32,676 bases of DNA from Raillietiella orientalis. Taxonomy: Eukaryota. Of the stretch, positions 5,114 to 26,998 are shown piece after piece. Where the stretch lies: positions 1 to 32,676 of the forward strand of contig JAYWIR010000197.1 of the NCBI GenBank assembly GCA_036172245.1, read 5' to 3'. A model generated the notes under the pieces. The model was not told where the DNA came from, searched no databases, and worked only from the letters and a program-made list of their open reading frames with translations. Each line of letters opens with the position of its first letter. Position 1 is the first letter of the stretch. Position numbers and translations under genes: made by a program.

Positions 5114-7744
5114 TTTCCACCCGGATATGCCGGGGCATTTATTTAAAATGAAGAAAAGCGCAATACATTATCGAGTTGAGAACCCGAGGTTTCACCACAC
5201 CAAAACAGCTTTCTGGCTGCCGGCACTATGCCGGCGAGGTCCTTCCAATGTGCGGGGGTTGGGAAAGGAAAAAACAAAAACAAACAAAAAGTTGAAATGT
5301 GGGAGGAAACAAATGTTTCAGGGGTGGGAGGGCAGGGAAGGGATCACTGTGCACGGGATAGGTCTTCTAGATTCTATTCAGGATCGGGACAAGCTGAGTC
5401 CTCTCTGCGCCTAAGTAGCGCAACTTGCAAACAGCTCGCACGAATAGGCGAGTGAAACGTAAGGCGTTGCCAGTTGGCTGACGTCTTCTCCTGGTGGCGC
5501 TCCAAGCCGCCACGATCCCTCGAATGCAGCAAAGGACTGCTACAGAAGCGGGGGGGGACAAGGCGTCACGACAGAAGAGGCGTCTGAGAACGTCCTTAGG
5601 GTCACATCCGCGCAAATCCAGGATCGCCGCAAGGCGATCCCATGAAAAGCGAATGGCACCACACTCCAGAAGAAGGTGGGGAAAGGTCTCTTTTTCCCCG
5701 CACCGGTCGCACTGGGGATCCACAGCTCCCCGGGTTGAGTGATACAAGCGTGCTTTACAGGGTAAGCCACAATGTATTACAAGCAACGCTACCTCCTGCC
5801 ATTTAAGGGGGAGGGATCCACTGTTCCAGGACGCTGAAGGCCACTTCATCTCCTCCGAAGATAGTCCGAGTAGCTCGCCCCAGCGTCGAATTCCGTAAGG
5901 CGGGACACTCGGCGTCGCAGCGTCCGCTAGCTGCCGAGATAACCATGCCTTTATCGGTTGTGTCCTGCCGCCAATGGTGCAGGACACGGTCCATTTCCCC
6001 AGCTTCCTACTGTCCCTGGCGTTTATTAGGAAGGGCAGCACTGGGGCAAGGAGGGTTATCAGGGCCCACAGAAGCTTGTCGTGGGACTGCACGATCTCCT
6101 GCAGCGTCCACCGGGCGTGCCTTTTTAGGCAAGTGTTTCTTGTGCCCGCCGGAACGTGGATCTTTACCCAGGTGGACACTAACTCGTGCAGCCATGCAGA
6201 ATAGTTCCCTGGGAGGCAGGAGATCCAGGCGTTCTCCCGTACCACAACGCACATGCGACGCAGGAGAAAGCCGCCTTGTGCTTCTCTGCGATCGCGCACC
6301 AGCAGAGACGACAACAGTCCATCGAATCCGCAGGCTCGTTGGGCCAGGAGGCGTGCTGGAACGCACCAAGGCGTGTCCCACGATTCTGCCGCGAGGGCGA
6401 GAGCCCGAAAGCGGAGTTGTAATTCCATGCGCTCCAGCGTAAGTACGCCAAGTCCTCCGTACTTACGTGGAGCGCACAAGTCTTTGAGCCTCACACGGGA
6501 ACTCCCTTTGCCCCAAAGGACTGTCCTCAGGAAGCCCGCTGCTCTTTTTCGGATAAAATGGGGGGCGGGGTACACAAAAAGTAGGGGGCTGAGAAGGGAA
6601 GCCGCAAACGTGTTCCACACCGCGGCCCGTTCTTGCAAGTAGGACTTGCGTTCTTGGAACGGACCGATCGCCAACGCTGCCTTTTGGAGACGGTCGGACT
6701 AGAATTCTGCTGCGCAGAAGTCCCCCGACGGAACGCCGAGGTACTTGAAACACCTGCCCGTGGGGATCCCATAGCGGATCCAGTCCGACCGTCCAGCCCA
6801 CGCCGAGCCAAGATACACCATGGACGACTCCGCCCTGTTCACCTCCAGGCCCGTCCCACGGTGCAGCAACTCGAAGAAGTCCTCGAGCGCACTCGCCGAA
6901 GTGGACCCGGGAAGGAGCAGCAGAAGATCGTCTGCATAGGCCGACACGGCAGGTGTGCCGGCACACGAGCTCGGCAGGGTTGCCAGAGTTGCCCTGTATG
7001 CCCTTAGCACCAACTCGAAGTAGATGCTGAAGAGCAAGGGGATCTGGCTGTCACCCTGCTGGATGCCGCGGCGCACGGGCACGCCGTACACGTGACGGCC
7101 GCTGAAAAACATATTAATAGACGCGATGCGCCAGCAAGAGCGCAGGTAAGACTGGAGCACAGCCGGGATAATCATGCGTTCCAGGAGCTCCAGAAGGAGA
7201 TCCTGGTCCACACAGTCGGATGCTTTGTGCAAATCGACCGCGACGGCAAAGGTTAACGCCGAGTCCATCCCACCCTCTGCTTGATCTTCTTGGTCAGAGG
7301 GGAGTGCGAGGCTCCCTTGACCATCCTGTGCAACGCGTTGTCGCAACTGCCACCATGACCTGGCGAGGAGCAGATTGGCCTCCATGGTTCATCTGGAACA
7401 GCGTAGGTCTGCTCGGGACTCACCACGGATGCGGCCACCCGAAACAAACGCTCAGACCACAACCTGGCATACTACTTTGCGTCCGCATTCACTACTGTGA
7501 TGGGACGCCTGTTGTCAATGTTGCGTAAGTCTCCTGATTTCGGCAGGAGACGTACTTTTGCTGACCGGAACGAGGCGGGAACTTCGCCGTGTTCGCGAAT
7601 CAGCGTACTTTGTCTGAGCAAAAGGGGGGAAAGCTCTGGCGGGAAGTGTTTGTAAAACTCCGCGGGCAGGCCGTCCTCCCATGGTGCCTTCCTCATCTTT
7701 ATCTTGCTGATGGCGGAGATGATCTCCGTCATTATAAACGGTTC
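5114..7744 (-). mobile_element. LINE copy I: 5'-truncated, RT to 3' end
   Basis: 3' terminal motif at 5114-5143. RT homology extends to EPFI near 7744. Confidence 0.85.
5344..7744 (-). pseudogene. ORF2 remnant (RT and CCHC finger)
   Basis: KAPWEDGLPAEFY, RPITVVNADAK, AVDLHKASD, QGD, SAYADDL, FKYLG and CDRCGEKETFPHLLLEC, broken by stops and frameshifts. Confidence 0.9.
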
Positions 7745-10251
7745 CGCTGCACGCAGAATCCCCGACGGAGAATATTCTCTCTGAGATACTCCTGTCTCAG
7801 GATGCTCGTGTTGTCGGCGAGGAGGAACGCAAACGTCTCAACAAGCCCTTCACGGCGGATGAATTTTCGTCCGCCATCGCTAGGCTGAAGAGACGAAAGG
7901 CGTTAAGCGAGGATGGGCTCCCTGCAGAGTTCCATCAGTGCTTTGCAGTGGAGCTCATTCCCTTGATGCTGAGACTCGCGACGCTGATAAGTGAATCCGG
8001 GAATGTCCCGGATTCCTTCCGCTCTGCGAAAATGCGTCTCCTGCCAAAAGGCGGAGACTTGCTCCGACTTAACAACTGGCGTCCGATCACCTTGGTGAAC
8101 TCGGACGTCAAGTTATTTTCCAAGCTGTGGGTCGCGCGGTTAGGAAGTATCGCGGAATCTGTGGTGAGCCCGGAACAAACCTACGCGGTTCCGGGACGAT
8201 CCATGGAGGCGAACATCCTTTTCGCGCGTACATGGATGCAGCTGCAGGAAGTTGTGGCGCAGAAAAGCCAGGCTGCTGCGAAAGTCACTGCCGCAGGCAA
8301 GAAGAACAGGCGCCGACGGCAGGAGGGAACGCCAGGTGCCTTGGCGGTCGCGGTCGATCTCCACAAGGCGTACAACTGAGTAATCCAGAAGTTGCTTTTG
8401 GAGATTATGGAACGCCTTGGGTTCCCGGCGCAACTCCTGCTGTATTTGCGCGCGTGCTGGCGCCACGCGCTAACCTGCATCACTTTCAGCGGCTGCCGCG
8501 TGTATGGTATTCCCATGCGTAGGGGCATCCGACAGAGCGACAGCTTAAGCCCGTTGCCCTTCAGCATCTACTTTGAGTTCGTGCTTAGAGCATACAGGCT
8601 GACGCTGTCTCACTTGCCAAGCTCCTGCCCGGGAACGCCTGCCGTGGCCGCCTACGCTGATGACCTGCTTCTTCTGCTCCCCATGTCCACCCCGGCGTCC
8701 AGTGTCGAGGATTTCTTCGACCTGATTCGTCGGGGAGCGGGCGTGAGCGTGAACAGAGAGAAGAGCGTGGTCGTTCCTGTGGGTACGTCGTGGGAGGGGC
8801 AGTCCGACTGGATCCGCCTCGAGATCCCCACGGGCGGGTACTTTAAGTACCTTGGCGTTCCGTTGGGCGCTTTCGGCGCAGCCGAAGCGTGGGCGGACTG
8901 TCTTCAGAAAGCAGAGTTGGCCATCAGCCCGTTCTTTAACGGCAAGTTTACCTCGCAGGAACGGGCGACTATTTGGAACACCTTTGTGGTCCCCCTCCTC
9001 CGTCCCCTGTTTTTTGTTTTAAACCGCCCCTATGCGGCAAAACAGCGGGCAAAACGCCTGCTCAGGAACGCTCTCTGGGGACCTGCGAGATCCAGGATCG
9101 GCCTTAAAGATTTGTTAGCTCCGCGTCGGGATGCTGGTTTGGGTATCCTGACAATGGAGCGAATCGGACTGGAGGTGCAGTTCCGACTGCTGGCACTGTG
9201 TGTCCAGCTATGGACATCCCTCCTGTGTGTGCCAGCCTGCATTCTCCTGCGGAGATGCGCCGGCAGCGGAGGATTTCTCTCGCTTTTGCCGGGCACTCAA
9301 TACAGGAAGCGGGGTTCCAGGTTTCCATTGCGGCATTTGACCGCACTTCTGGAAGCTCACTAGTGGATCTCCTGCCGACCAATGTACTTTGAATCTTGGC
9401 GGTAGGAGTCTGTTGCATCCTAAGCAAAGTTCCAAGGAATACGCCCTGAAGATCTTCGCCCCCTGCGCCAATTTTTTCCACGATCCTTGGAAGAAGTACT
9501 GCAGGACGAGGTGAAGTTTTCTACCCTGGCTGCCACGCCTCTTGCCGCAGCGCTGTCTGCCCTCAGAGCAAGAAAGGACCGTTGCCAACAGGCGAGGTGG
9601 GAGGTTTTCTGCACGATAGCGGAAAAAACCACACTCCTTGGCGCCTGAAAGACGAGTGAGTTGGCGGACGCCGCCACTCCTCGTGTTACTGCAAAGGGAC
9701 TCCTCCGGTGGGCAGAAGAACTTGCTGTCACCCCCGAAGAACTTGTAGTCCCTCCACAGTGTATTGACAGTTCGCTGCTCCCGCTTGCTTGGGAACAAGC
9801 CGTGGTGCTTTTCGTTCACTGGGGTTTTCAGTGCAACGAGAGGTGGCATCTTGAATCCGGGGGACTTGCGTTTGCGAACTGCGTTCGGTGCGGATAGACG
9901 GAGTCGATTGTGCACCTACTTCTGGACTGCGGTGTCCTACAAGGACTGTGGCGTAGGCTAAAAACAGCACTATTGCATCCCGTGGACACCGCAAGAGACT
10001 TGCTGCGACGATTCTTCTCGCCGAGCGGGCTGTCCTTAAGCGCAAGGATGGCAACCATCGGTTGCATACGCGCGATGGTTTCTGTCCGCCAGGCGTTCGT
10101 AATCAACGGAAAGCACCAAGGGGTAATCAGCAAAGCATCCTTCTACATGGAAGCATCCGCTAGATGGCCTCATTTGACAGAGGAGACAAAAAGGAATCTC
10201 GCCGCAATACACCGCCGGTTTACACACGCTCAGCAGCGGCCAACCCAGTGA
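7745..10251 (+). pseudogene. ORF2 remnant (RT and CCHC finger)
   Basis: DGLPAEF, NWRPITLVNSDVK, AVDLHKAYN, AAYADDL, YFKYLG and CVRCG*TESIVHLLLDC, with multiple in-frame stops. Confidence 0.9.
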
Positions 10252-10565
10252 TCATTGCCCTACCCTCGATAAACTAATTTTGTATTTTGTTTTTACACCC
10301 GCGTCCCCATAGGCTCCGGAACATTTTAGGTTCTCATCGTATAAATCCCCGTGAGTACGGAGCCTAACCAAAAATCCGTTACCCTTCCCTCCAGTTTTTG
10401 ATTTTTGTTTGTTTCCCCTCATTCCTTCCACGCTGCGAGCTGTTTGTTTAGCAGGCCTGCGTGCCGGTAATTTTTCTATGTTCCCTGTCGTTCTGTTGGT
10501 TGAGGACATTGTCCCTGACCAGTTTATTATTATTAATAAACGCCCCGGCGTGTCCGGAAGATAAA
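7745..10565 (+). mobile_element. LINE copy J: 5'-truncated, RT to 3' end (divergent subfamily)
   Basis: Head-to-head with copy I. 3' motif AATAAACGCCCCGGCGTGTCCGGAAG starts at 10535. Confidence 0.85.
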
Positions 10566-10907
10566 TTTCAATCTCCGCCTGCTAACAGGTGAGCCGAAAA
10601 CACAAGTGAATGCTATGAACGAGTTGTGCCCCGCCATGCGTGCGCGGAACTTGTTCGCGGGTGAGAGGGGAATGGTCCGCAGCATCGACCACGTCTTCCT
10701 CGACGCTGACCTGTGTTCACGGGTCGGCAAACCGAAGAGGGTTGCATCGACGTTGTCGGACCATTCCCGGTTAATTTTCGAGATGCGGACTCGCGACAAG
10801 GGACCGCCATCCAGGGATTGGCGTCTGCCGGGGGACTGGACGCGACTCTCAGGTGCGAAGGAACACCTTTGCGAATTTTTGAGAGGCGTCACGCTCCAGA
10901 GTCTCTG
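10566..10907 (+). mobile_element. LINE fragment K: C-terminal half of the endonuclease
   Basis: FNLRLLTGEP, SIDHVFLD, TLSDHSRL and WRLPGDW, bounded on both sides by 3' ends of other copies. Confidence 0.85.
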
Positions 10908-13253
10908 TTTAAACCCGGTACGCCGAAACGTTTATTATTTCAAATAAACTCATATAAACTGTGACTGGACCAGTAGTCCAGCCATGCCCTGGAAACATTC
11001 AGCCTGCAGGGCTGCCGGTGCACAGACCGACACGGTCGACCTCGGCAGCAGAAGGGAGAAGTAATCAAAGAAAAAGAAAACAAAGAAATAAACAAAACCT
11101 GGGAGGGAGCGGGAAGGGATCACTGTCTGCTTGGAGGTTCCATCATCCTCTGGAGGATGCCGGCAAGCTGTCGCTAAATGGGGGGTTCCAGATGAGGCCA
11201 TCGCGTCACCATCCTCAGGATACGGGCGGCGTAAACGGTGGCGTCCCTGTCGCTGGACCCTCCCGCCGCTTTGTTCCAGGCCACGACGATCCCGTGTAGG
11301 CAGCACAGGGCTGCAAGCGAGGCCGCCGGAGGCAGAGCATCACGGACGAAGAGGGGGCGCAAAGCGTCTCTAGGGTTGCCTCCGGGGATCCCCAGGGCTG
11401 CGGCAAAGCGTTCCCACAAGGGACGGAGGGCAACACATTCCACTAGCAGGTGGAAGAGGTATTAAATCTCCCCGCACCTGACACAATTGGGGTTGACACC
11501 CCCCCGCGTTTAGTAGTGTCGGCGGGCGTTGCAGGGGAGGCCCCAATGCAACACCAGGAGTGCCGACTGTTGTCACTTCATGGGAAAAGTGCGCAAGTCC
11601 ATGAGCACCGGGGGCCAATCGAGATGTTCCTTCGAATCATCCAGTAGCTCGACCCAGCGCAAGAGTCCGTGTGGGGTGGTCGTCGGGCTCGCAGCGTTGG
11701 TGAGCTGACCCGTTCTTCAATCCCCGATCTTCTTTGCCCTGCTGGCGACCTTGACAGTAACCTCCCATTGTGCCGCGACGTCGCTGCCCAGATATTCCCG
11801 TAGGGTAGGCAGTACCGCAGCAAGGGAGGTTCTTTGAGCCCACGCTCTCCTTCGGGGATTCTCGAAGATTTCTTGAAGCGTGCGGTGGGCGTGCGGCCCG
11901 AACAGAGCTATTCGCTCGTGTTGAGGGCTGTGCTCCTGAGTCATCGCCCACGTGCGGACGGTTTCCTGCAACCAGGCAGGACCGTTCGGGGGGCGTACGA
12001 GGATACGCTCCGAGCTGGTCTTCACGAGCTTGGCCGCCCTTCGAAGCTGATGTCCGCAGTGGCAGATGGAGCTTCGGAGTGCAAAGTAGGACGAGATTCC
12101 CGCATTGCCGGTGGCCCGCTCGACGAGAAGACGTGCAGTGAGGCACCAGGCGGTGCACCGATTTTTTGCCATAAAGGCAACACTCCGGTACTGGAGCTGA
12201 AGCTCCAGCCGCTTTAGCGTCAGGAGGCCAAGACCGCCGTCCCGACGCGAAGCGCACAAGTCCGCGACAAAAACTCGGGGCTTTCTCTGCCCCAAAGGGC
12301 TATCCTCAGGAGGTCCTCCGTCCTTTTCCTAGACTCCGCTGAGGGAAGGCAAACAAAAAGTAAGGCGCGAATTAGGGGTGCCGCAAACGCGTTCCACGCC
12401 GCTGCCCGTTCCTGCAGGTAGAACCTGCCGTCCTGGAACGGGCCGCTCGCCGCCTGAGCATTCTGAAGGCAGTCGTTCCACGCTTTCGCAGGGGAGTGGT
12501 CCCCCAACGGCACACCGAGGGACTTGAAGTACCTGACCGTGGGGATCCCCAAACGGACCCATACCTGCTGCTCTGTCCACGCCGCTCCGACTGGCATTAC
12601 GGAAGACTTCGCCCTGTTCACTATAAGTCCGGTTCCCCGATGCAGCTGGTCGAAGAACTCCTCGACCGCCTAAGCCGGGGTGGAAATAGAGAGCAGTAGC
12701 AGAAGATCGATCGCGTATGGCGAAGCCGCAGGCGTATTGAGACAATCGCACGGCAGGTGCGCCAGGGTCTCCCTGTACGCTCTCAGCACCAATTCGAAAT
12801 AGGCGCTAAAGAGCAGGGGGCTCAGGCTGTCTTCCTGCCGTATGCCGCGTCGCACCGGTACTCCGTGCACGGTTCGCCCGCTGAAAAGAACATTAATTAG
12901 CGCGTCGCGCCAGCTGGAGCGCAGGTAGGCCACCAAAAAGGCAGGGAAGCCCAAGCGTTCCAGAAGCTCCATCAGGAGATTCTGCTCGACGCTGTCGAAT
13001 GCTTTACGCAAGTCTACAGCGACCGCAAGGGCTCCCTTCCTTACCCGACCGTTTTGCCTCCCGCCAACGGACGCACCGGAATTCCGGCTGCTCAATAAGC
13101 CCCTTCCTGGTTGGAGCTCTAACCATGTGGTAGCGTGGAACAGGTTCGCCGCCATGCTCCGCTCGGGAACAGCATATGTCTGTTCCGGGCTGATGAAGAT
13201 GTTGGCAAACCGTCCCAGACGTTCTGCCCACATCTTGGCTATCAACTTGGCGT
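10908..13253 (-). mobile_element. LINE copy F, 3' part (RT from DAKL to 3' end)
   Basis: Minus-strand 3' motif AATAAACGTTTCGGCGTACCGGGTTTAAA at 10936-10908 and ORF2 stop at 11120-11122. Decayed RT motifs AVDLRKAFD, YAID and FKSLG. Interrupted at 13253. Confidence 0.85.
13239..13253 (+). repeat. Left target-site duplication CTATCAACTTGGCGT
   Basis: An identical 15-mer lies at 18397-18411. The pair flanks the 5' and 3' termini of copy L exactly. Confidence 0.92.
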
Positions 13254-13341
13254 GCTAACGTGTTTTTTCCGCGCTCCTCTGCGCCTGTTGTAAAGCGTTC
13301 TTTTTCGGTAGTGTTTGTGTATGGAGCATCTGCGGTGTCCT

Positions 13342-15044
13342 ATGGCAGAAATGCCTGAGGATACCGCGATGGAAGTCGGCGGGGGAGAGGATTGCTCCTC
13401 TCCCCAACCTTTTGAGGTGGGGGCAACCGCCCCCACGGAGGAGAGAGCAACCGCTCCCTTGAAAAAGGAAGCAACCGCCTCTCCGGAAACGAGGACTACT
13501 GCCACCTTGAAAAAGGGAGCAATTGTCCTCGTGCAAAAGGCCGCAACCGCTTCCTTGAAAAAGGGGACAACCGCCGCCTTGGAAAAGGGCGCGAACGCCT
13601 CCTTGAAAAATGAAGCAACCGCGTCCTTGGATCCACCTGCTCCATGCACGAAGACCTGGAGCTCCGTGGCTGCAGCGCCATCTCCTGCTGCCTTAGCAGA
13701 ACAACGGGCCTACCTGGAACAAGGATACAAGCCGTCCTTGATTTACAAGGTAGGAAACCTGTTTATAGGGAACACCGCTCGTAACTTTGAAAGGGAGTTA
13801 CAGCGGTTGGATGTTAAAGAGGAAGACCTGGAAGGTCTCTCCGTGATGAGTGGGGGCCAGCGGGTGGAGCTGACGTGCAAAAATGCAAGTCTGGCTCAAC
13901 GCCTGCTGAACACTCCCATCACTCTGGAAGGCCGAAAGGTCTTCCCTGTAACGGAGGACCGCTCCATTGTTGCCCACCTTACGGGTGTAACTCTTCGCAT
14001 GACCAAAGCTGGCGTGCAGGAAAAGTTATAAAAACATGGTACGGTGCACGCGCTCTGGACCAAGCCCAACGTCTTCCAAACATACGGAAGACTGTTCAGT
14101 GGCATGGCTTCAGCGCGTGTGACGGTCCAGAAAAACGGTGGGCTGCCCCACAAACTCGACGTCGGCAACGAGGTCGTCGACGTCTGGTACGTGGGCAAGC
14201 CCAAGTACTGTTGGCACTGTGATGCAACGGGGCACCTGAAAAAACGGTGCCCTCACATCCAGTGTTTGCACTGCGGAGAGAAGGGCCACCTTCGGAATGT
14301 GTGCCCAAAGCGGGAACCTCCAGCGCCTTCTGCCTTGAAAAAAGGTAAGGGGAAACGCTTGGAGAAAGCACGAAAGTCCAATGAGCCAACAGAGCGGCAA
14401 AGCCAAAAGCTTGTGCCCGAACCCTCCCAGGAAACGCCAGTCGAGAAAACTTCCGACGACGCTTATGAGAACGAGGGCTGGCGGACGGCGAAGCCCAAAA
14501 GTAAAAAACCCAGGAAAACCAAAGAACCGACAGCGGAACCCGCGACATCTCAATTAAATAGGATACAACTCCGCGCTTTACTCCGCGAATGTTCGGTCGC
14601 TTTGGAGCGAGTGGAGATCCCCGAGACCTCCACCGGGGGAGATATCTCCCGCCTCGTTGACGCCAAAGCCGCGATCGAGGAAGGCGAAAACTCTGTGCAA
14701 ACAGAGGGGAGCCGAGCGACGCGCTCGCCGCAATCGAGGACGCCGCCTTCCAGCAGGCGGCGGAAGAGCTCGCGGGCGAACTCGCAGAGCGTGAGAACGG
14801 CGCGCGAAAAGCCTTGCGAAGGCCGGCCGCGAGCAAGGCACCTCGAACAGGTGACCACTAACCGGATGCCGGAAGTGCGTCCTCCTCCACGGAGGCGCCT
14901 CCGAATAAGACTGGGCGGAAGTCCAAGAATCCTAAGAGGCTCATCCCGACAAAGAAGGAGGGGGACGCTCCGGCATCCGAGGGGGAAGCCGGCAGCGTGG
15001 GAACGGAGGTAGGGATTTTCCCACCCTTCGCTACCGAGCAAACT
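13342..15044 (+). pseudogene. ORF1 of copy L (two CCHC knuckles)
   Basis: CWHCDATGHLKKRC and CLHCGEKGHLRNVC. TAA at 14029, a frameshift near 14710, and the C-terminus is deleted. Confidence 0.88.
13423..13638 (+). repeat. ~9 x 24-bp coding tandem repeat (ATAPLKKG-like)
   Basis: Periodic GCAACCGC..TTGAAAAAGGG units. Confidence 0.8.
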
Positions 15045-18000
15045 GGCTCACCTGATAGCGGGAGATTTTAATCTCCGCCTGCTATCAGGTGAGCCACACG
15101 CACAGGAACGAACGGCTAACGAGTTGTGCGCCGCCATGCGCTCGCGCAACTTGTTAGGGGATCTTTCGGAAATGGTCAGCAGCATCCACAACGTCTTCCT
15201 GGAAGTCGACCTGTGTTCACGGGTCGGCAAACGGGGGAAAGTTGCGTCAGAGCTGTCTGACCATTTCCGGTTGATATTCGAGGTGTGCCCGCGCGACAAG
15301 GGCCCCCCATCCAGGGCGTGGCGCCTGCCTGAGGACTGGACGCGACTCTCAGGTGCGAAGGAACACCTTCGCGAATTCCTGAGAGGCGTCACCCTCCGCA
15401 ATCTCAATGATTGGGACCTTTTTAAGGCCTCGGTCCGCGAGTTTTGCGAGGAGTTCCCCTTGCACCTCCTGCCCCGGGGATTTGGGGAGGGCATCCGTAA
15501 CGAACGAGCGTACTTGTATGCCCGTCGTTACGCGAGGACCTCCAATGTCCGTCGCCTGGCAGAGTACCGAGCCGGGGCCGAACGTCAAGCCTGGCAATCC
15601 GGATCGGACAGCTTGCTAAACGACCAGGGCCGGGAGCACTCGGCTCCGGCTAGAATACGGCACCTCGTGCGGCGTTTTTATTTCTCCCTTTACGCCAGGG
15701 CGCCCCGGACCAAGATGCCTCTCGGCGCTTGCTTCCGAACGGTGCCCCGGCAATAGGGGAGGAGGACAAGGAAAGCCTCGACAAGCCTTTAACCACCGGC
15801 GAAATTATCGCCGGTATCAAAAGGCTCAAGAGGCGGAAAGCACCTGGGGAGGACGGCCTGCCTGCGGAGTTTTTTCAATGCTTCGCGGCAGAGTTGGCAC
15901 CCCTGGTGCTTGAGTTGACAAGGCTGAACCGAGATAAAGGCGATGTACCCGCCTCGTTTCGGTCAGCCAGAGTGAGGCTCCTTCCGAAAGGAGGAGACCT
16001 CAGGAAACTCAGCAACTGGCGTCCGATCACAATTGTGAACACGGACGCCAAGCTGATCGCCGGACTGTGGGCTTCGCGTCTGGGGAAGGTGGCCAATTCT
16101 ATAATTAGCCCGGAGCAGACTTACGCTGTTCCCGGACGAAGTATGGAGGCCAACCTCTTCTTCGCGAGCACATGGTTTCATGTGCAGAGTAGTCAATAAA
16201 AAAAAGAGGGAAGGATTGGCGCCCCGCTTTGGAGGCGTCAGCCGGGCAAGGACAGGTCTCCCAGGTGGGGAAGGGAGCCCTAGCGATCGCAGTCGATCTG
16301 CACAAAGCGTTTGACTGCGTGGACCAGGATCTCCTGCTTGAGCTCCTGGGACGCATGGGCTTCCATCCCTATCTACTGACCTACCTGCGCTCTTGCTGGC
16401 GCAGCGCCCTGATCAATATCTCTTTCAGAGGTCAAATGGCGTACGGCGTGCCGGTACGGCGGGGCATACGTCAGGGCGACAGCCTCAGTCCCCTGCTCTT
16501 TAGCACCTACTTTAAGTTGGTGCTGAGAGCGTACAGGGTGACTTTGGCCCCCTTGCCGAGCTCGTGCCCCGGCACGCCCGCCGTAGCAGCATACGCCGAC
16601 GATCTTTTGCTTCTGTTGCCGATGTCCACCCCGGAGAAGGCGGTCGGGGATTTCTTCGATCTGCTTAGCCGCCGGACCGGACTTACGGTGAACAGGGCGA
16701 AGTCGACGGTGGTTCCAGTCGGTGCGGCGTGGGCTGGGCAGCAGGACTGGGTCTGCTTGGGGATCCCCACGGCGAGGTGCTTGAAGTACCTTGGTGTGCC
16801 GTTGGGGGACTACTCCCCTGCGGAAGCGTGGTCTGTCTCCCTCCAAAAAGTGGAAACGGCGATCGGCCCGTTCTTATAAGACAAGTTTCTCCTTCCGGAA
16901 CGGGCCGCGGTATGGAACGCGTTCGCGGGTTTTATCCTCCGCCCCCTGCTTTTTGTTTGCCCCGTCCCCAGAGAGTTGAAAAAACGGACGAAGGAGCTCC
17001 TGAGAATTGACCTTCTGGGAAGTGGGAGGCCCCGACTGCCGTTGAAGGACTTGTGTGCTCCACGTCGGGATGGCGGTCTCTGCCGCTTGACGATAGAGCG
17101 AGTAGAGATTCAGCTGCGGTGGCGAACCCTCGCCATCGCAGCAATGTTATGGAGCACCCCTTGGTGCGTTCCGGCCCGACTCCTTGCCAGCCGTGTATCC
17201 GGAACGGAGGGTCTCGCGTCCTATCTTCTGTGCCGTGGCAGGAAGATCAAGAGATGCGGACTTCTCCTGGGACGCATGGCAACTCTGGCTAAGGAAAACG
17301 GCTGGATGGTATGCAGCCCCGCCAACTCCTCCGCATGGCTGGAGGAGACAGCTGGCACGTGGGCGAAGATAAAACAGAAGCACGGAGAGATGTGGAACTG
17401 CCTGCGACGCGGCGTTTATTCCCGCTGCACTCTGCGGAAGATACTCCAGTGTCCCTCGAGAAGCACGTGAGCGGAGACAACCCCCCTACATACGGCGATG
17501 CTTTTCCTGAGGAGGGCGCTCTCCAGCAGCCGCAAGCCTAGATGGCAAGTCTCCTGCTGTATCGCAGGCAAGAAGAAGCTGATGAGCGGCTGGTCCATGA
17601 GGGAACTGGCAAACGCCACGACCCGAAGTGTCCTTTCGCGTGGATTAGTGAAATGGGGCGAGCTGCTCGGCATCCAGCCGGATGACCTGAAGTGGCCCCC
17701 GGTATTAATTGGTTCTAGGATCCTCCCCCTGAAGTGGCAGGATTCGGCGCTTCTGTTGTTGCATTGGGGTCTACCCTGCAACGCACGCCGCCACCACTGG
17801 ACCAAAGGTCGTGTAGATCCTACCTGCATCAGGCGTGGGGAACGGGAAACCCTACCCCACCTCCTTGTAGATGGTGCTGCCCTCCGACACCTGTGGGAAC
17901 GTTTTCGTGCCTCCCTACGGATCCAGGAGGGCAGCCAGCCCAGAGACGTTTTTCGGCTTCTGTTCGTGCAAAATGCCCTGCGTCCAGCCGCTGCCCTGGC

Positions 18001-18190
18001 TGCACTTTGCTGCGTACGCGGGATTGTGACGTGCTGGAGCAACGTCGGAAGACCGAATCACGACAGGGATGCCGTCGTACTTGCAGTCCGCTACCTGCGG
18101 ATTGTGACCAGATGGCCCCACCTGGGAATTATACGGACGGTCCTCGAGGGCATCCTGCGAAGGATGGACCCTCCTCCCAGTGGTCAGTGA
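15045..18190 (+). pseudogene. ORF2 of copy L (half endonuclease, RT, decayed CCHC finger)
   Basis: GDFN, LSDH, KAPGEDGLPAEF, NWRPITIVNTDAK, AVDLHKAFD, QGDSLSP, AAYADDL and KYLG, with stops and frameshifts. Confidence 0.9.
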
Positions 18191-18366
18191 TCCTTCCCCA
18201 ACCCTCCCAAATCTTTTTGTTTTTATATTTTATTTTTCTTCTTGTTTTTTCCCATACCCCCTTCCGCTGCCGAGGACAGTCGCGCCGGTCTGCGTACCGG
18301 CGACCCGGCAGGTCCAGTTGAGTTGGCCGTAGTGGGGCCTCGTACCACGAATCAAAGAGAATTTTT

Positions 18367-18396
18367 AATAAACGCCCCGGCGTGACCGGGTGGCAA
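18367..18396 (+). terminator. 3' terminal signal: AATAAA plus GC stem-loop (representative of 8 copies)
   Basis: The same motif lies at 4096(+), 5114(-), 10535(+), 10908(-), 22542(-), 28710(-) and 30967(-), always at the element boundary. Function is inferred. Confidence 0.7.
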
Positions 18397-18411
18397 CTAT
18401 CAACTTGGCGT
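18397..18411 (+). repeat. Right target-site duplication CTATCAACTTGGCGT
   Basis: Identical to 13239-13253. Confidence 0.92.
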
Positions 18412-18987
18412 CTGCATTTACTTATGTGATATGAAGGCAGTAGTTCATGCTCCTTAGGTCGCCTCCCTTCGGGAGGAGCCGCACCTTTGCTGAACGAAAC
18501 GAGATGGGAACGTCACCTGTCTCGCGAATCAGTAAGGTGAGCTGATGTACCAGAGGGGTAAGCTCTGCCGCGAAAGTTTGGTAAAACTCCGCGGGCAGGC
18601 CGTACTCCCCTGGAGCCTTCTGCGTCTTGAGCTTTCCGATGGCCGAGATGATCTCGTCCATCGTGAAAGGCTCGTCGAGGCTCCTTTCCTCCTCCTCCCC
18701 GATCGCTGGAGCAGCTTCCGGAAGCAGAAGTCGTGAGTCGTCTCACTCCGAAGGCGCCCTGGCGTACAGGGAGGAGTAAAATTTTTTCACAATCCCGCGC
18801 TTCTGAGCAGGAGCCGGGTGCTTCCGACCCTGATCGTCCAGCTAGCTAGCCGACCCGGATTGCCAGGCTTGCCTCTCGGCACCCGCTCGATACTTTGCTA
18901 ACCTGCGCATGTTGGGGATTCTCGCGCAACGTCGGGTCTGAAGATCGCACCTTTCGTTACGCGGCCCCTCCCCAAATCCCTTGGCGA
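18397..18987 (-). mobile_element. LINE copy F, upstream continuation (EN-RT linker to NADAK)
   Basis: LAKGFGEGPRNER, KAPGEYGLPAEFY, LLPKGGDLR and NADAKL. Cut at 18987 by the 5' end of copy M. Confidence 0.88.
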
Positions 18988-19074
18988 GCGGACGTGTTTT
19001 TCCTGAGCTCCCGAGCGAGTCGACAGGAAGCGGCTTTTTCTGTGTTTTGTTGTGTGGAACATCGTTGGTGTCCG

Positions 19075-20832
19075 ATGGCAGCGATGCCTGAGGACACCAC
19101 GAAAAAGGTAAGTGTTAGGGAGGCTTACGCACTTCCACAGCCTGCAGAATCAGGGGTGTCCGCCTCGGAATCATCCCCGGCAACGCCGAGGACGTGGAGC
19201 GCCAAGGTGTCCGCGCTCGGCGCGGAAAACTAGGCAGAGCAAGCGGCCTACAGGGCCTCCGGATATAAACCATCTCTGGTTTATAAGGTAGGACCCCTGT
19301 TTGATAGTCGCACCGCCCGGGCATTTAGTAGGGCACTGCAGGATTCCCCTGTAAGAGAAGAGGATCTTGACGGCCTTTCCGTACTCAGCGGGGGGCAGCG
19401 CGTGGAGGTCGTCTGCAAACACGTAGCCTTAGCACAGCACCTCATTAACACCCCGCTGAATGTGGATGGCCGGAAGATCCTGCCGGTTAGCATATACCGC
19501 TCCGTAGTGGTCCATCTAACCGGCATTACGAACCGCATGACGCGATCTGCGGTGAGTAATGAACTCAGTAAGTACGGTGAGATACACGCGTTGTGGCCAA
19601 AGCCTACCATTTTCGAAGCTTTTAATAGCCATTTCGGAGGCCAAGCTGCAGCGCGTGTAACGGTTAATGAGAGCAGTGGCTTGCCCTACAAACTGGAGGT
19701 CGCAAAGGAATCCGTCGACCTCTGGTACGTGAGGGAACCCCGCTATTGTAGCTACTGCGATGCAGTAGGGCACTTGCGCAAGCGGTCCCCGAATATCGAG
19801 TGCCACTTGTGCGGGGTTAAGGGACACCTTCGTCGTGTGTGCCTTAAAAGCTTCACCCCGGTGTCACCTGCTGCCAAAAAGGCACAGGCAACAAAAGGAA
19901 AAAAGGTCGAAAGAACTTATCGCGAAACTGGCCGGCCCCAGCCGCCATCTCCTGTTCCTCACACCCAGACGTCGGAGGAAAAACCCGCTGAAGACGCGGG
20001 AGAGGAAGAAGGATGGAAGCTGGTAAAGGCCAGAAAAGAAAAAGAAAAAGTTCTCCCCGTGGAACCCGCGATAGCGAAGAGAGAAAAGAGCGCGAAACCG
20101 AATAAACCCGGTCCGCGCTTGAAAACTCTTCGCGAGTGCACGGTGGCACTCGAACGGATTGCCGTCCCCGAGGCTGCCACCCAGGGCGATGAGCCTCCCC
20201 TCGCCGTTTCCGCAGCGCCCGAGGTTCGCGACGACGAACCCTCTGTTTGCACAGAGGGTGAGCCGCGCGAAACGCGCGCCGAAAGCGAGGACGCCGCGTT
20301 CGCGCAGGCGGCGGAGGAGCTCGCGGTCACGCTGGCCGAGCGTGAGAACCCCTCACGCAAGGCCTTGCAAAGGCCGGCTCCGCCGAAGAAGGCCCCCGCA
20401 GGTGAGTGCGACCTGGGGGCCGGAAGTGCATCCTCCTCGTCGGAGGGACCCCCCCGGAAGACGGAAGGCAAGTCCCAAAAGCCGAGGAGGCGCCTCTCCT
20501 CCACGAGCGAGGAGGAGAAGCAGGAACCCGACGGCAGCGTGGGAATCCCGGAGGAGGAAATCCCACGCGCGGAAGTCGTCGAGCAGGCCACCCCCATGGA
20601 AGAGGGAGAGCAGAAGGGCGAAGTCCTCCTTGCCGGCGCGGACCCTGTACAGCCCACCCGTATGGAGGAGGGCCAACAGGTAGGCGCGACCCCACCGGAG
20701 GGTGACCCGCCCGACGCGCCGTCACAGATAAAGCAGGGGGACCAGGTGCTCGAGGCACCTGTCCCTTCTGCCCCAACTAGCGTCCCGCCTTAACAGGTGG
20801 CGCACGCCGCAGAGCCGATTTCCCAAAAATAA
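19075..20832 (+). pseudogene. ORF1 of copy M
   Basis: A single frame with stops at 19231 and 20791. Knuckles CSYCDAVGHLRKRS (decayed) and CHLCGVKGHLRRVC. The homologous stop (ISQK*) is at 20830-20832. Confidence 0.88.
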
Positions 20833-22541
20833 CACGTGGGCTCGCCTGTCGCCGTCGAATCCTCGTGGCCAGTTGGAACGTCAACGGGCTGCGCGACGAC
20901 GGCAACAGACGAGATACGGCCGACACCCTGCGTGAGTTCGACCTGGCCCTGCTGCAGGAGATCCACGTGATCACCTCGGCAGACGTCCAGGAGATCGAGG
21001 CGATCGCGGGGGGTCGACTGTATTGGCGATGCGGCGCCCGCAACACCTGCGGGGTCGCGTTCTTCGTCAAGCCGGCCATCGACGCTGCCGTGAAGGGCGT
21101 ACGCTTCGATAACGACGGTCGGGTCGGTCAGCTGATTCTCAGCTGGTCCGACTCGATCGAATTGATCGTCACGAACGTGTACGCCCCAAGGGGGAAAGGG
21201 GGATACAGCGACCGTACCAGGTTGCTGAACACCCTGAAGCGCGACTGGATGGCCGATACGAACGTGCGGAAGGCACACCTGATAGCTGGGGACTTTAATC
21301 TCCGTCTGCTGTCAGGTGAGCCCGAAGCACAAAAACGCACGGCCAACGAGTTTTGCGCTGCCATGCGAACGCGCAACTTGTTGGCGGACGCGGAGGGAAT
21401 GGACCGCAGCATCGACCACTTCTTCCTGGATGTCGACCAATGCTCGCGGGTCGGCAAACGGGGAAAAGTTGCGTCGACGCTGTCGGACCATTCCAGGTTA
21501 ATCGCCGAGGTATGCCCGCGCGACAAAGGACCCACGGCCAGGGCGTGGCGGTTGCCTGGGGAGTGGACGCACCTCTCAGGTTCGAAGGAACACCTTCGCG
21601 AATTCCTCAGAGGCGTCACCCTCCGCAGTCTCAAAGGTTGGGACCTCTTCAAGGCCTCGGTCCGCGAGTTCTGCGAGGAGATCCCCCTGCACCGTCTGCC
21701 CCTTGGATTTGGGGAGGAAGCTCGGAGCCATAGGGCCTACCTCCAAGCCCGCCGGTACGAGAGGACCCCCAAAGTCCGTCGCCTGGCCGATTATCGAGGC
21801 GGGGCCGAGCGCCAAGCCTGGCAATTGGGGTCGGCCAGCATGCTCGACGACCAGGGCGGGGAGCGATCGGCCCCACCTGCGATCAGGCACCTCTTGCGCC
21901 CTTACTATTCCTCGCTTTACGCTAGGGCACGCCCTGAGCGGGACGCATCGCGACTTCTGCTTCCGGACGGAGCCCCGGCAATAGGGGAGGAGGAAAGGAT
22001 GAGCTTCGACGAGCCTTATTCTACCGGAGAAATTCTCGCCGGTATTAAAAGGCTCAAGATACGTAAGGCGCCAGGGGAGGACGGCCTGCCTGCGGAATTT
22101 TTTCGATGCTTTGCGACAGAGCTGGCCCCCCTGGTGCTCCAGTTGACCGGGCTGATCCGAGACGAAGGCGACGTTCCCACCTCGTTTCGGTCAGCCCGTG
22201 TGAGGCTCCTCCCTGAGGGAGGAGACCTGAGATCCTTAGGCAAATGGCGTCCGATCACAATTGTGAATACGGACGCCAAGCTGGTCGCTGGACTGTGGAT
22301 CTCGTCTAGGACAGGTGGCAGACTCCATAATTAGCCCGGAGCAGACATACGCTGTTCCCGGGCGAAGTATGGATGCCAACCTGTTCTCCGCGAGCACATG
22401 GTTCCATGTGCAGAGCTGCCTAAATTAAACTGGAGAGAATTTTAACAACCCCACTTTGAAGCCGCCAGCTGGACTGAAAATGGACACCCGGGCTGAGAAG
22501 GGGGCCCTAGCGATCGCGGTCGATCTCCATAAGGCGGTCGA
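20832..22541 (+). pseudogene. ORF2 of copy M: complete APE endonuclease and RT N-terminal part
   Basis: SWNVNG, LLQE, GVAF, NVYAP, AGDFN, SIDH and LSDH, then KAPGEDG and WRPITIVNTDAK. Open to about 22300, then frameshifted. Confidence 0.92.
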
Positions 22542-24891
22542 TTTTCACCCGGATTTCGCCTTGGCGTTTATTGTAAAATAAACTTTTACAAAGACGTGCG
22601 GTGGCTGGACCATTGCTCCAGCCACGCACGAAGAAACACAGAGCCTGCCGGGTCACCGGTTTGCGGACCGGTACGGTCCACCACGGCAGCAGGGGAAAGG
22701 GGGAAAAACAAAAAACAAAACAAAAAAGAAAAGAAAAGTTGGGAGGGTAAGGGAAGGGATCACAGTTGCTGGTGGGGCCGTTGCATCCTTTGCAGGATCC
22801 CGACAAGCTCCTTCTGTATTCCTGCATCCAGGTGGCGCCATCGGGACGCCCTCCTCAGGAAGTGGGTGGCTGGCTGGATGGCAACCTGGTCGCGTTGTCC
22901 TCCCGTAGCCTTGCTGCAAGCGGTGACGATCCCGCGTAGGCAGCACAAAGCTGCTAACAAGGCCGCTGGCCGAAGGGCGTCGGCAACGAAGAGGGCTTTC
23001 AGTGCGTCCCTGGAGTTGCCGCAGGGGATTCCGATGGCCGCGGCTAAGCGAAAAAAAAGGGGCCGAAGGGCAACACAATCCACTAGCAGGTGGGGGAGGG
23101 ACTCCCGTTCCCCACACCTGACGCAATTGGGGTCAACCGCTCCCCAGGTACAGTGGTGTCGGCGGGCGTTGCAGGGAAGTCCCCAGTGCTGCAACAGGAG
23201 AGCCGACACCTGCCATTTCAAGGGGAGGGCGGAAGTGTTCATGAGCACCGGGGGCCACTTCAGATGTTCATTGGGAACATCGAGCAGCGCGCCCCAGCGC
23301 AGAAGTCCATTGGGAGGCGTACTCGGGGTCGCAGCGTCTGTTAACTGGCCCGTCTTCCACTCTCCTATGTTCTTCTCCTTTCCGGAGATTGTTACTGTAA
23401 CCAACCACTTCGCCGCAACGTCGCTGTCCAGATCTTCCATGAGGAAGGGCAGCGCAGCAGCGAGGGTGGTTCTTCCTGCCCACGCTCTCTTCTTAGGATC
23501 CTCCAGGATGTCGCGGAGCGTGCAACTTCTGTAACCCCCAAACAGGAACCTTCGCTCCTGTTGGGAGCGTTGCATTCCGAACTGTCCCCACGTTCGAACG
23601 GTTTCCTGCAACCAGGCACTACCGTTCAACGGGAGACAGGTGAGCAATCCTGGATTTTTCCGATACAGCGCAGCCACCCTCCGTAGCTGGAGTCAGCATC
23701 GGTTGACGCGGCGACGGAGTGCAAGAAACGACGTCAGTCCCGTGTTGCCGGTGATTTGCTGGAGAAGGAGACGTGCAGGGACGAACCAACAGGTGCACCA
23801 GAACTCTGGAACGAGCGCCGACAAGCGGAACTGGAGCTGAAGCTCCAGCCGCTCCAGCGTCAGGAGGCCCAGACCACCATGCCGACGAGGATCGCACATG
23901 TTCTTTAAGCGGACTTGGGCCCTCCTGTTGCCCCAAAGGGCGATACGGAGGAGGTCCTTTGTCCGCTTTTTAATCCTCTCTGTGGGGGGGCAAACAAAAA
24001 GCAGGGGGCGGAGGAGAGGAGCCGCGAACGTGTTCCAAATTGCGGCCCGTTCAGGCAGGAAAAAGCTGCCGCCTCGGAACGGGCCGATCGCCGTGTCTAC
24101 TTTTTGAATGCAGCCGGACCACGCTTTCGCAGGGGAGTAGTCCCCCAACGACACACCAAGGTACTTGAAGTACCTCACCGTGGGGATCCCCAAACGGACC
24201 CAGTCCTGCTGCCGTGCCCACGCCGCACCAACTGGCATCACGGACGACTTCGCCGTGTTCACCGTAAGTCCGATTCCCCGATGCAGCAGTTCGAAGAACT
24301 GCTCGACCGCCTCAGCCGGGGTGGACATAAGGAGCAGCAGCAGAAGGTCGTCCGCGTACGCTGAAACGGCAGGCGTACCGGCACATTCGTGCGGTAGGTG
24401 CGCAGAGTTTCCCTGTACGCTCTCAGTACGAACTCAAAGTAGGTACTGAAGAGCAAGGGGCTCAGGCTCTAACTTCCGTATCCCAAGTCGCACCGGCACG
24501 CCGCGCACGGTTTGCCCGCTGAAAGTAACATTGATGAGCGCGTCGTGCCAGCAGGAGCGCAGATAGGTTACTAATGAGGCCGGGAAGCCCATGCGTTCCA
24601 GAAGCTCCAGAAGGAGATTCTGGCCGACGCAATCGAATGCTTTTCGCAAGTCGATTGCGACCGCAAGGGATCCCTCCCCCACCCGACCATCCAACCACTT
24701 GCCGGCGCACGCACCGGAATTCCGGCTGCGCACCAAGCTCCTTTCATGTTGGAGCTCTAGCCAGGTGGAAGCGTGGAACAGGTTCGCCTCCATGCTTCGC
24801 CCGGGAACAGCATATGTCTGTTCTGGGCTGACGAAGATGTTGGCAACACGTCCCAGACGCTCTGCCCAAACCTTAGCCGGCAACTTGGCGT
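22542..24891 (-). mobile_element. LINE copy E: RT (from DAKL) to 3' end
   Basis: 3' motif at 22542-22572 and ORF2 stop at 22760. AIDLRKAFD, SAYADDL, YFKYLG and CVRCGERESLPHLLVDC, frameshifted. Interrupted at 24891. Confidence 0.9.
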
Positions 24892-24979
24892 GCGGACGTG
24901 TTTTTGTAGCGCTCCTCCGCGCCTGGTGTAAAGCGTTTGGTTTCTTTTGTGTTTGTGTGTGGAGCATCTGCGGTGTCCA
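24892..24979 (+). promoter_or_regulatory. 5'UTR, putative internal promoter (representative of 5 copies)
   Basis: Conserved ACGTGTTT start, a CTCC motif, a TG-rich tract and GGTGTCCNATGGC. The promoter role is by analogy with other LINEs. Confidence 0.5.
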
Positions 24980-25060
24980 ATGGCAGAAATGCCTGAGGTC
25001 ACCGCAATGGATATAGGAGGGGGAGAGGCTTGCTCCTCTCATTTACCCACAGAGGTGGGG

Positions 25061-25276
25061 GCAAACGCCCCCACGGAGGCGACGGCAGCCGCACCCCTGA
25101 AAAAGGGGGCAACCGCCGCCTCGGAAGCGAGGGCAAAGTTCCCCTTGAAAAAGGGGGCAAAAGCCCCGCTAGAACAGGGTGCAACCGCCCCCTTGAAAAA
25201 GGGGACAACCGCAACCCTGGAAAAGGGCGCAACCGTCTGCTTGAAAAAGGGGGCACCTGCACCCTCGAATGCGTCT
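25061..25276 (+). repeat. ~9 x 24-bp coding tandem repeat (ATAPLKKG-like)
   Basis: Same periodic unit as 13423-13638. Confidence 0.8.
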
Positions 25277-26687
25277 TCCGCATCGCCGAAGACCTGGAGT
25301 TGAGAGGCTGCAGCCCCATCTCCTGCAGCCCTCGCCGAGCAGAAAGCCTACCTGGAGCAGGCATACAAGCCGTCCCTGATATACAAGGTAGGCAATCTGT
25401 TTGTCGGGAACACCGCTCGCAACTTCGAAAGGAAGTTGCTGCGGTTGAACGTAAAAGAGGAAGACTTGGAAGGTGTTTCCGTGTTGAGTGGTGGTCAGCG
25501 GGTGGAGCTGACTTGCAGAAATGCAATCCTTGCTCAACACCTCCTGAATACGCCAATCACACAAGAAGGCCGAAAGGTTTTCCCGGTAACGGAGGATCGC
25601 TCCGTGGTGACGCACCTCACGGGAGTCACCCTCCGCATGTCGAAAGCCGACGTGCAGGAGGAACTCGGAAAATACGGAACGGTTCACGCGCCATGGCCCA
25701 AGCCCAACGTCTTCCAGAGTTACGGAAGACGTTTAGTGGCATGGGTGGTGCGCGTGTAACCGTCTACGAAAACGGTGGGCTACCCCACAAACTAGACGTC
25801 GGCAACGAGACCGTCGACGTCTGGTACGTGGGCAAGCCCAAGTACTGTGGACACTGTGATGCCACAGGGCACCTGAAAAAGCGGTGCCCTCACATCCAGT
25901 GTTTCCACTGTAGAGAAAAGGGCCACCTCCGCAAAGTGTGCTCGAAGCGCGTACTTCCGGCTCCCGCTGCCTTGAAAAAGGCCAAAGGGAAACGCGCGGG
26001 GGCTACGGAAAAGCCTTCGAAGGCACCCGTGAGACGGAACCCACAGCCGGAGCTCGAGCCCGTGCAGCAAACGCCGGTCGTGGAATCTACCCAAGACGCT
26101 GAAAAGAGCGAAACCTAACAGAAGGCGAAGCCTGAAGCTAAGAAACCAAAGAAAAGTGAAGGATTGACAGCGGAACCCGCGACGTCTCCTTTAAATAGGA
26201 GACAACGCCGCGCGTTGATCCGCGAATGTTCGGTCGCTTTGGAGCGTGTGGAGGTACCCGAGACCGCCACCGGGAGAGCTATCCCCCGCGTCGACGCCGA
26301 CGATAACGCGATCACGGAAGGCGAACCCTCTGTGCAAACAGAGGGGGAACCGCGCGACGCGCTCGCCGCGATCGACGAGGCCGCATTCCAGCAGGCGGTG
26401 GAAGAGCTCGCGGCCGAACTCGCCGAACGTGAGAACGGCGCGCGAAAGGCCTTGCGAAAACCGGCCGCGACCAGGGCACCTCCGACAGGTGACCACGACC
26501 CGGATGCCGGAAGTGCGTCCTCTTCCACGAGGCGCCTCTGAAGAAGACTGGACGGAAGTCCAAGAATCCCAAGAGGCGCATCCCGACGAAGAGCGAGGGG
26601 GACGCACCGGCAGCCGACGGGGAAGCCGGCAGCGTGGGAACGGAGGGAGGAATTTTCCCACCCTCCGCCACCGAGCAGCCGGCCACC

Positions 26688-26925
26688 CCAATGAAGGAGG
26701 GGGAGCAGGTAGGGCATTGCCTCCCCCTTCCACCGGTGGAGCCTGCGGAGAAGATAGTCATGGAAGAGGGGGAGCAGACAGCTGAGAACCGCTCCCCCCT
26801 GCCGTCCATCGCAGTCGAGAAATCGGCCCACATGGAAGAGGGGAAGCAGGTGCGTGAAGCATGCTCCCTTCAACCGTTGCGTTCCGCCGAGGAATCGGCC
26901 CCCATGGAGGTGGGAGAACCGCTGG
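26688..26925 (+). repeat. 4 x ~72-bp degenerate repeat (PMEEGEQ) in the ORF1 C-terminus
   Basis: The ATG of the motif lies at 26691, 26760, 26832 and 26904. Confidence 0.7.
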
Positions 26926-26998
26926 GCGGTGCCCCCATGCCTCCATCCGTCCCGCCCGACCAGGTGGCGGGAGCCCCATTGTTGCTTTCCCAGGAGTA

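Follow-up and report, generated by a model that had tools for sequence, protein, structure and literature searches.

We have analysed a stretch of 32,676 nt (the window, 32.7 kb) from the genome of Raillietiella orientalis (assembly GCA_036172245.1, contig JAYWIR010000197.1, positions 1 to 32,676 of the forward strand). The window has a G+C content of 58%, and nearly all of it consists of copies of a single family of retrotransposon that lacks long terminal repeats (non-LTR), lying on both strands. Open reading frames (ORFs) in the window match Exo_endo_phos (46.8 and 40.7 bits, with a cut-off of 24.5), RVT_1 (63.2 bits, cut-off 29.6), zf-RVT, i.e. the C-terminal zinc-binding region (28.7 bits, cut-off 27.5), and zf-CCHC, the zinc knuckle of ORF1 (23.7 bits, cut-off 20.8). 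The domain order in ORF2 is apurinic/apyrimidinic endonuclease (APE), then reverse transcriptase (RT), then zf-RVT, and the CCHC knuckle lies in ORF1. The family is therefore an APE-type, L1-like non-LTR retrotransposon with a knuckle-bearing ORF1. In protein collections its nearest relative (P0001) has 68% identity, and every other relative has 22-37%. Within the window there are no matches to Rfam.

The ends of the elements are well defined. All eight 3′ ends carry AATAAA(C/T)G followed by a short stem-loop (CCCCGGC..CCGGG) and then an end resembling ..CCGGGTG(GC)AAA with 3-5 A (18367-18397, 4096-4126, 5112-5143 and others); at none of these eight is there a poly(A) or simple-repeat tail. 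Five of the 5′ ends are full length, and all start G(C/A)(G/C/T)(G/A)ACGTGTTT.

We denote individual copies by letters. The region from 10565 to 32676 is a single nest made only of copies of the family, in the order g > F > X > E > N > M > H, with an additional element L inserted in F. The nest is seven levels deep, each new element lying inside the preceding one, and an antisense orientation relative to the host is found for 7 of about 10 insertions in the window. Host F is inserted in fragment g (+ strand) and lies on the - strand in two parts. Its 3′ part, from the DAK arm described below to the 3′ end, is 10908..13253, and its continuation upstream of L is 18398..18987, running from the right copy of the L target-site duplication (the DAKLI codons) back to approximately reference position 2224, where the 5′ end of X interrupts it. 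Element L (13254..18397, + strand) is complete at both ends and antisense in F; its last nucleotide is 18397 and not 18398. Element X (18988..22542, +), inserted in F, is present from the 5′ end as far as the KAFD codons, where E interrupts it. The latter (22543..24891, -) is antisense in X and comprises the stretch between its 3′ end and the DAK arm, where it is interrupted by N at the same nucleotide at which F is interrupted by L. Element N (24892..28710, +), antisense in E, likewise reaches from the 5′ end as far as the KAFD codons, and is interrupted by M (28711..30967, -), which is antisense in N at KAFD and covers the part between its 3′ end and a point 9 nt upstream of the WRP arm. Here it is interrupted by the 3′ part of H (30968..32676, -), which is in the sense orientation in M and runs to the end of the window; the boundary is uncertain by ~4 nt.

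The codons W-R-P-I-T-I-V-N-T-D-A-K of the RT contain a 34-nt palindrome, TGGCGTCCG-a-TCAC-aatt-GTGA-aca-CGGACGCCA, that we term hairpin 1; its two arms are named after the WRP and DAK codons. In L it lies at 16017..16050 (+). A search of the window with a degenerate pattern (≤3 mismatches) gave six matches, against none in 100 shuffles, bearing out the sequence-only reading that the inverted repeat is present here and retained elsewhere. The other copies are in X (22245..22278, +), N (28411..28444, +), f (8077..8110, +), e (7477..7510, -) and M (30925..30958, -). That in f has one G-U pair in the outer stem, and its loop closes further; this had been read from the sequence as a switched inner stem, but is a loop-closing extension and leaves no existing pair changed in a compensatory way. 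That in e is partly decayed and adopts an alternative register. In M the DAK arm is intact, H being inserted 9 nt upstream of the WRP arm. A seventh, decayed copy in host F (18406..18439, -) no longer folds; its last 6 nt are part of the right copy of the L duplication. The DAK-arm site is empty in L itself, X, N, f, e and M. The exact pattern of hairpin 1 has no match in contigs of prokaryote genomes and none in viral contigs. A metagenome scan with the RT alignment returned three loci of 24-36% identity, all with YRPITLLN(T/A)DAKL, which are not usable as a control for the W..K hairpin.

Hairpin 1 of L has a calculated minimum free energy as RNA of -20.6 kcal/mol (z = -6.2), and none of 200 shuffled sequences is as stable; folded as DNA it has -11.3 kcal/mol. 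The remaining copies lie between -16.6 and -20.6 kcal/mol, with -0.1 kcal/mol for the decayed copy in F. The stability is not a consequence of the protein sequence. When the peptide WRPITIVNTDAK was held fixed and codons were drawn from family usage, 0.045% of 20,000 samples folded as well (P = 0.00045) and 0.6% reached -16.6 kcal/mol, and therefore the amino acids do not force the hairpin. The third positions of residue-conserved codons are invariant at 5 of 7 sites inside hairpin 1 and at 5 of 31 outside (Fisher P = 0.008), so the synonymous-site conservation sought by the sequence-only reading is present. This comparison used four lineages (L, f, e, and M or F) with pairwise synonymous distances of ~0.9-1.7. 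The e/M and f lineages fold the hairpin in slightly different registers (CCC/AAT/GCG or TCG), which is suggestive without being strict covariation. A constraint at the nucleotide level on hairpin 1 is supported by these comparisons, and selection for pairing as such is no more than suggested.

Three insertions map to the foot of this hairpin, in both orientations, as had been noted from the sequence. The 5′ ends of L (at 13254) and N (at 24892) both directly follow ...CAACTTGGCGT, so the earlier observation that they lie at the identical nucleotide of the DAK arm in two different hosts is correct; N starts in E after ..GGCAACTTGGCGT, at the same nucleotide as L in F. Element L is flanked by a perfect 14-bp target-site duplication, TATCAACTTGGCGT, with the left copy at 13240..13253 (+; the DAKLI codons of F read antisense) and the right copy at 18398..18411 (+), identical to the left at 14/14 positions. 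The duplication spans from 6 nt inside the 3′ arm of hairpin 1 (CGG^ACGCCA on the antisense strand) to 8 nt beyond the arm. When L and one copy of the duplication are removed, the reading frame of F continues through ..VNADAKLIAKMWAERL.., and F can be aligned with E and M. Given the duplication and the reading frame across the restored site, L is an ordinary target-primed insertion.

The third insertion is that of H, whose 3′ end (minus strand) is followed by ATCAACAACTGGCGT in M. The junction lies within 1-2 nt of the mirror image, generated by the dyad, of the 3′ junction of L, with an uncertainty of ~4 nt arising from a run of A. The sequence-only reading had put the two junctions at 8 and 9 nt from TGGCGT; the mirror position stands, while these figures are only approximate. 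Of about 10 mapped insertions, 3 lie inside a 64-nt interval of an element that is 5.1-5.9 kb long (P ~2e-4, calculated post hoc). On at least three separate occasions other copies of the family entered at the foot of hairpin 1, a pattern that points to precise self-targeting.

A second point of recurrent insertion lies 270 nt downstream of hairpin 1, in the K-A-(F/V)-D codons. The 3′ ends (..CCGGGTGAAA) of E in X (22530-22550) and of M in N (28698-28718) are located at one nucleotide, after the GAT of this motif. The homologous position in L is within a second hairpin at 16288..16319 (+), formed by the codons A-V-D-L-H-K-A-F-D-C, and the insertion point is inside its 3′ arm (GCAGTCGAT..TTTGACTGC in L). 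Hairpin 2 is retained in L, F, e, M and E; the paired share of the 88 cells is 90.9%, and falls to ≤40% once the partner is slid. Three of its 12 pairs have changed on both sides (G-C to A-U and A-U to U-A), and its covariation score is reached by only 5 of 500 shuffles; the structure was derived from L, a choice that favours this structure. Note that hairpins of ≤ -16 kcal/mol cover 21% of L, while those of ≤ -20 kcal/mol are found at only six loci, hairpin 1 among them, that together make up 4.6% of the element.

The L, N and X lineage has a third hairpin in the GDFN codons of the endonuclease (15044-15103 in L, 27438-27497 in N and 21272-21331 in X), with 23 bp, -39 kcal/mol and z = -8.8. 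Fragment g retains the right half only (10565-10595), and the 3′ end of f lies in the loop. Element L lacks 760 bp that are present in N and X (15040/15044 in L compared with 26678-27437), comprising the start of ORF2 and approximately the first 400 nt of the endonuclease domain, and this deletion ends at the 5′ base of the third hairpin. Element L may have moved in trans, or the deletion may have arisen later.

The shared junctions could in principle derive from single insertions that were subsequently copied. A maximum-likelihood tree of a 1-kb RT segment beside the DAK arm groups E with M (99/98) and then with F (100/99), and the site in M is empty. The differences between F and E at codon positions 1, 2 and 3 number 148, 115 and 212, with a ratio of non-synonymous to synonymous change (dN/dS, omega) of 0.39 and dS of 0.68. 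Those between ORF1 of L and N number 73, 81 and 127, with an omega of 0.37. The same pipeline applied to neutrally mutated copies of 23-30% divergence (10 runs) gave an omega of 0.69-0.88. Compared with this neutral range, the divergence in both pairs bears the mark of purifying selection; hosts and inserts thus stem from different active lineages and not from neutral duplication. The insertions of L in F and of N in E are separate events. Tree and dN/dS alike reject the alternative raised by the sequence-only reading, a single duplicated insertion from which both would descend. At the KAFD junction X and N are 79-81% identical (omega 0.35), while E and M are 90-95% identical (omega 0.68). This inequality across a single junction shows the KAFD insertions to be independent, E in X and M in N being separate events too.

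The junctions have short words in common. At the four recurrent 3′ junctions the strand that primes reverse transcription reads GTTGAT(A)^, GTTGAT^, GTCGAT^ and TTTGAT^, where the caret marks the junction, i.e. TYGAT^. This motif occurs at 0.124% of positions, so that its presence at 4 of 8 3′ junctions has a binomial probability of ~1e-8 with 3 nt of slack allowed, for a motif found post hoc. At the other end, CTTGGCG(T/A) precedes three of the five full-length 5′ ends, those of L (13246-13253), N (24884-24891) and X (18980-18987), the remaining two being at other sequences. The 5′ end of X follows CTTGGCGA in F at about reference position 2224, a host site with no hairpin, and only 3 of these 7 flanking bases match the homologous sequence of L. 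The word before X could be a carried-over 5′ flank, or could reflect a preference on the top strand. The choice of site follows lineage, with E and M at KAFD and L and N at the DAK arm. Hairpin 1, as a palindrome, carries the same sequence, ACGCCA(N)GTTG..GAT, on both strands. Two further candidates were discarded. CGGACG is not distinctive as a word (36 matches compared with 25 expected), and an apparent microhomology between the 5′ end of the element and its target, 9/11 alike by eye, has the junction out of register.

We consider it probable that these junctions record genuine, repeated self-insertion and that the integration machinery drives it through a target preference, with the palindrome offering the same words on both strands. 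The machinery of the family would prefer a short sequence, possibly with the help of local structure. The primed strand would be nicked after ..G-T-Y-G-A-T, and in the L, N and X lineage the other strand would be joined after CTTGGCG(T/A). Since the palindrome has the same words on both strands, either orientation would be usable, and insertion would proceed by ordinary target-primed reverse transcription. Landing in existing copies would provide a safe haven and would build the nested cluster. Hairpin 1 is a stem-loop preserved at the nucleotide level inside the most conserved RT motif of the family, and may be preserved either for the RNA or as a target.

A number of observations weigh against this. 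The evidence comprises one window, with five events at three sites that were selected after the fact. Four of the eight 3′ junctions (F in g, c, e and f) do not have TYGAT. Each element contains 7-12 TYGAT sites, yet the same ones have been reused, and therefore the word alone is not sufficient. In host E there is no TYGAT within 50 nt downstream of the 5′ junction of N, and therefore the first nick for N was probably made outside the motif. Elements c and H are 95% alike, yet their targets are unrelated. Hairpin 1 of host F does not fold, although this decay may postdate the insertion. Lastly, strict covariation, a check named in the sequence-only reading, is absent from hairpin 1; in a fixed register none of the 13 pairs shows a change in both partners, and shuffling reaches the covariation score in 420 of 500 cases. 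Its conservation could therefore reflect a constraint on sequence, and not on structure.

The principal alternative to a sequence preference is that the endonuclease, or a structure-specific nuclease of the host, recognises an extruded hairpin or cruciform and cuts symmetrically at its base, the hairpins being kept as landing pads. The hits at mirror positions on the two strands would be explained in this way, as would the top-strand breaks for L and N at the same nucleotide in the 3′ arm although E lacks a downstream TYGAT. Moreover, the KAFD site is also in the 3′ arm of a conserved hairpin, in this case with covariation; the -39 kcal/mol GDFN hairpin has the 3′ junction of f in its loop and the end of the 760-bp deletion of L at its base; and hairpin 1 belongs to the small set of most stable loci in L. 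Against this, the 5′ junction of X follows CTTGGCGA at a site without a hairpin, and another 4-5 junctions lie outside strong hairpins. With 21% of the element covered by hairpins of ≤ -16 kcal/mol the coincidence at KAFD is weak evidence, and hairpin 1 lacks covariation. Because a palindromic site has the same words on both strands, symmetrical hits are expected under sequence recognition as well, and do not separate sequence from structure. We regard direction by structure as rather unlikely. A fuller version holds that stem-loops in essential endonuclease and RT codons are maintained as structure-specific landing pads. An extruded hairpin or cruciform would be cut at its base on either strand, like a four-way junction, and each copy would bring fresh, mutation-resistant targets, leading to nesting into the youngest copy. 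This we judge to be unlikely. The sequence-only reading had proposed a dyad-symmetric landing pad encoded by the element itself. Of that proposal, the conservation of the hairpin and the junctions at its foot are supported; recognition of the dyad and an encoded landing pad are its less likely parts, given that the KAFD site lies outside hairpin 1 (though in another hairpin), that TYGAT^ is shared, and that the 5′ end of X is at a hairpin-free site.

Another explanation places the specificity in the RNA. Each lineage would have a master copy residing in a site, with transcripts that start and end a few bases inside the duplicated flank. The flank would pair with other copies, fixing both junctions, and the hairpin would be incidental. 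The use of sites tracks lineage as this requires, the relatives E and M being at KAFD and the relatives L and N at the DAK arm, and the CTTGGCGA before the 5′ end of X, which is related to L and N, looks like a carried-over flank, the host position being unrelated and agreeing with the homologous L sequence in only 3/7 bases. By contrast, the unrelated targets of the closely similar c and H are not expected, a and b have no such 5′ flank, and the conservation of synonymous sites in hairpin 1 is left unexplained. We find this explanation improbable. We note that within one window sequence preference, hairpin structure and flank-carrying transcripts are not separable.

It is very improbable that each shared junction arose once and was then copied (through segmental or tandem duplication, gene conversion, composite retrotransposition or twin priming), or that the junctions are assembly artefacts at inverted repeats, a possibility largely refuted even though colinear self-alignments cross both types of junction (10929-15040 with 22565-26677, 77%; 20781-23901 with 26948-30069, 86%) and the identities of F with E (75.7%) and L with N (81.1%) are of similar size, which alone would not exclude duplication. 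Segmental duplication is ruled out by the tree, in which E groups with M and its empty site and not with F, by the values of omega with differences concentrated at third codon positions, and by the unequal X-N and E-M identities. Twin priming, in which inverted and direct parts come from one RNA, requires a single RNA for both arms, and where N and E overlap their identity is just 63%. L differs from fold-back artefacts in that its 14-bp duplication is clean and in that it connects two different elements.

The recurrent self-insertion that we favour may be set beside several known systems. Site-specific LINEs (long interspersed nuclear elements) with an AP endonuclease, such as R1, TRAS/SART and the Tx1-type elements, insert recurrently with nucleotide precision, their junctions being defined and their duplications short; they target repeats of the host such as ribosomal DNA, telomeric repeats or small RNA genes. 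The independent insertions at one nucleotide found here (L in F with N in E, and E in X with M in N) resemble these. The targets differ, as they are codons of the family's own reverse transcriptase and are used in either orientation, and the specificity is incomplete, half of the 3′ junctions and two of the 5′ junctions being at other sequences. Bacterial group IIC introns (at terminators) and IS200/IS605 elements insert at the foot of a stem-loop, but the enzymes and mechanisms are unrelated to those of the present family and this is an analogy only. An antisense 3′ part head to head with a sense 5′ part is also reminiscent of L1 twin priming. The parts here come from different lineages, as the identity of their overlap indicates, and L has host sequence on both sides together with a duplication.

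The Zepp elements of green algae carry poly(A), whereas the tails here have only 3-5 A. The Zepp and ZeppL L1 LINEs of Coccomyxa and Chlamydomonas form LINE-only nested clusters that the accounts drawn on here attribute to targeting of existing copies, and in several green algae such self-nesting clusters are putative centromeres (PMC3446292, PMC8226300, PMC9940879). The present cluster is similar in being a LINE-only nest of GC-rich elements inserted in one another, a likeness drawn from published description and not from sequence comparison. It differs in that Zepp arrays, as described there, are mostly 5′-truncated 3′ ends, while five full-length 5′ ends are present here. The parts of these three papers that we draw on describe no target at the nucleotide level inside the Zepp or ZeppL element; the original Zepp papers (PMC1169995, PMC169880) are outside this scope. 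Cnl1 forms subtelomeric arrays, and no site-level target is given for it in the corresponding part of its description (10.1101/2021.08.11.455996). Self-nesting LINE clusters are thus already known; in the portions of the literature on self-site nesting, Zepp and Cnl1 that were covered, there was no account of nucleotide-precise nesting in hairpins of an element's own coding sequence.

In the Zepp-type literature, to the extent that it is covered here, how an element finds its own copies is left unexplained, and the window supplies candidate targets at the level of the nucleotide. These are two or three conserved hairpins in the coding sequence of the element, together with short words shared by the junctions, with a choice of site that follows lineage. 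Recognition of the structure would amount to a new means by which a eukaryotic retrotransposon selects a safe target, and recognition of the sequence to site specificity of a new kind, aimed at the element's own gene.

Contigs of a public sequencing run (X1) contained 7% of the words sampled from the window, and 569 contigs could be fitted, mostly with less than 90% identity. Among the contig joints listed, those near hairpin 1 connect 16052 to 16274, 16052 to 22510 and 27143 to 16006; they resemble transitions from one diverged copy to another over a variable linker.

In the left part of the window the - strand carries a, b, d and e, and the + strand c and f. The 5′ truncation of element c (1952-1971 and 4126-4134) falls at the K of KAFD; the element shows a 9-bp target-site duplication, ACGTCGGCT, together with 11 nt of filler, CTAACCGACGT, close to the reverse complement of its target, and sits on the very 5′ end of b. 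Elements e (-) and f (+) meet head to head at 7747-7753 with an overlap of ~7 nt, both being 5′-truncated within ~30 codons of each other. Because they are only ~68% identical, this pair is not a recent inverted duplication. Near the start of ORF1 both L (13445-13631) and N (25057-25264) contain arrays with a period of 24 nt, comprising 7-8 copies with 65% matches.

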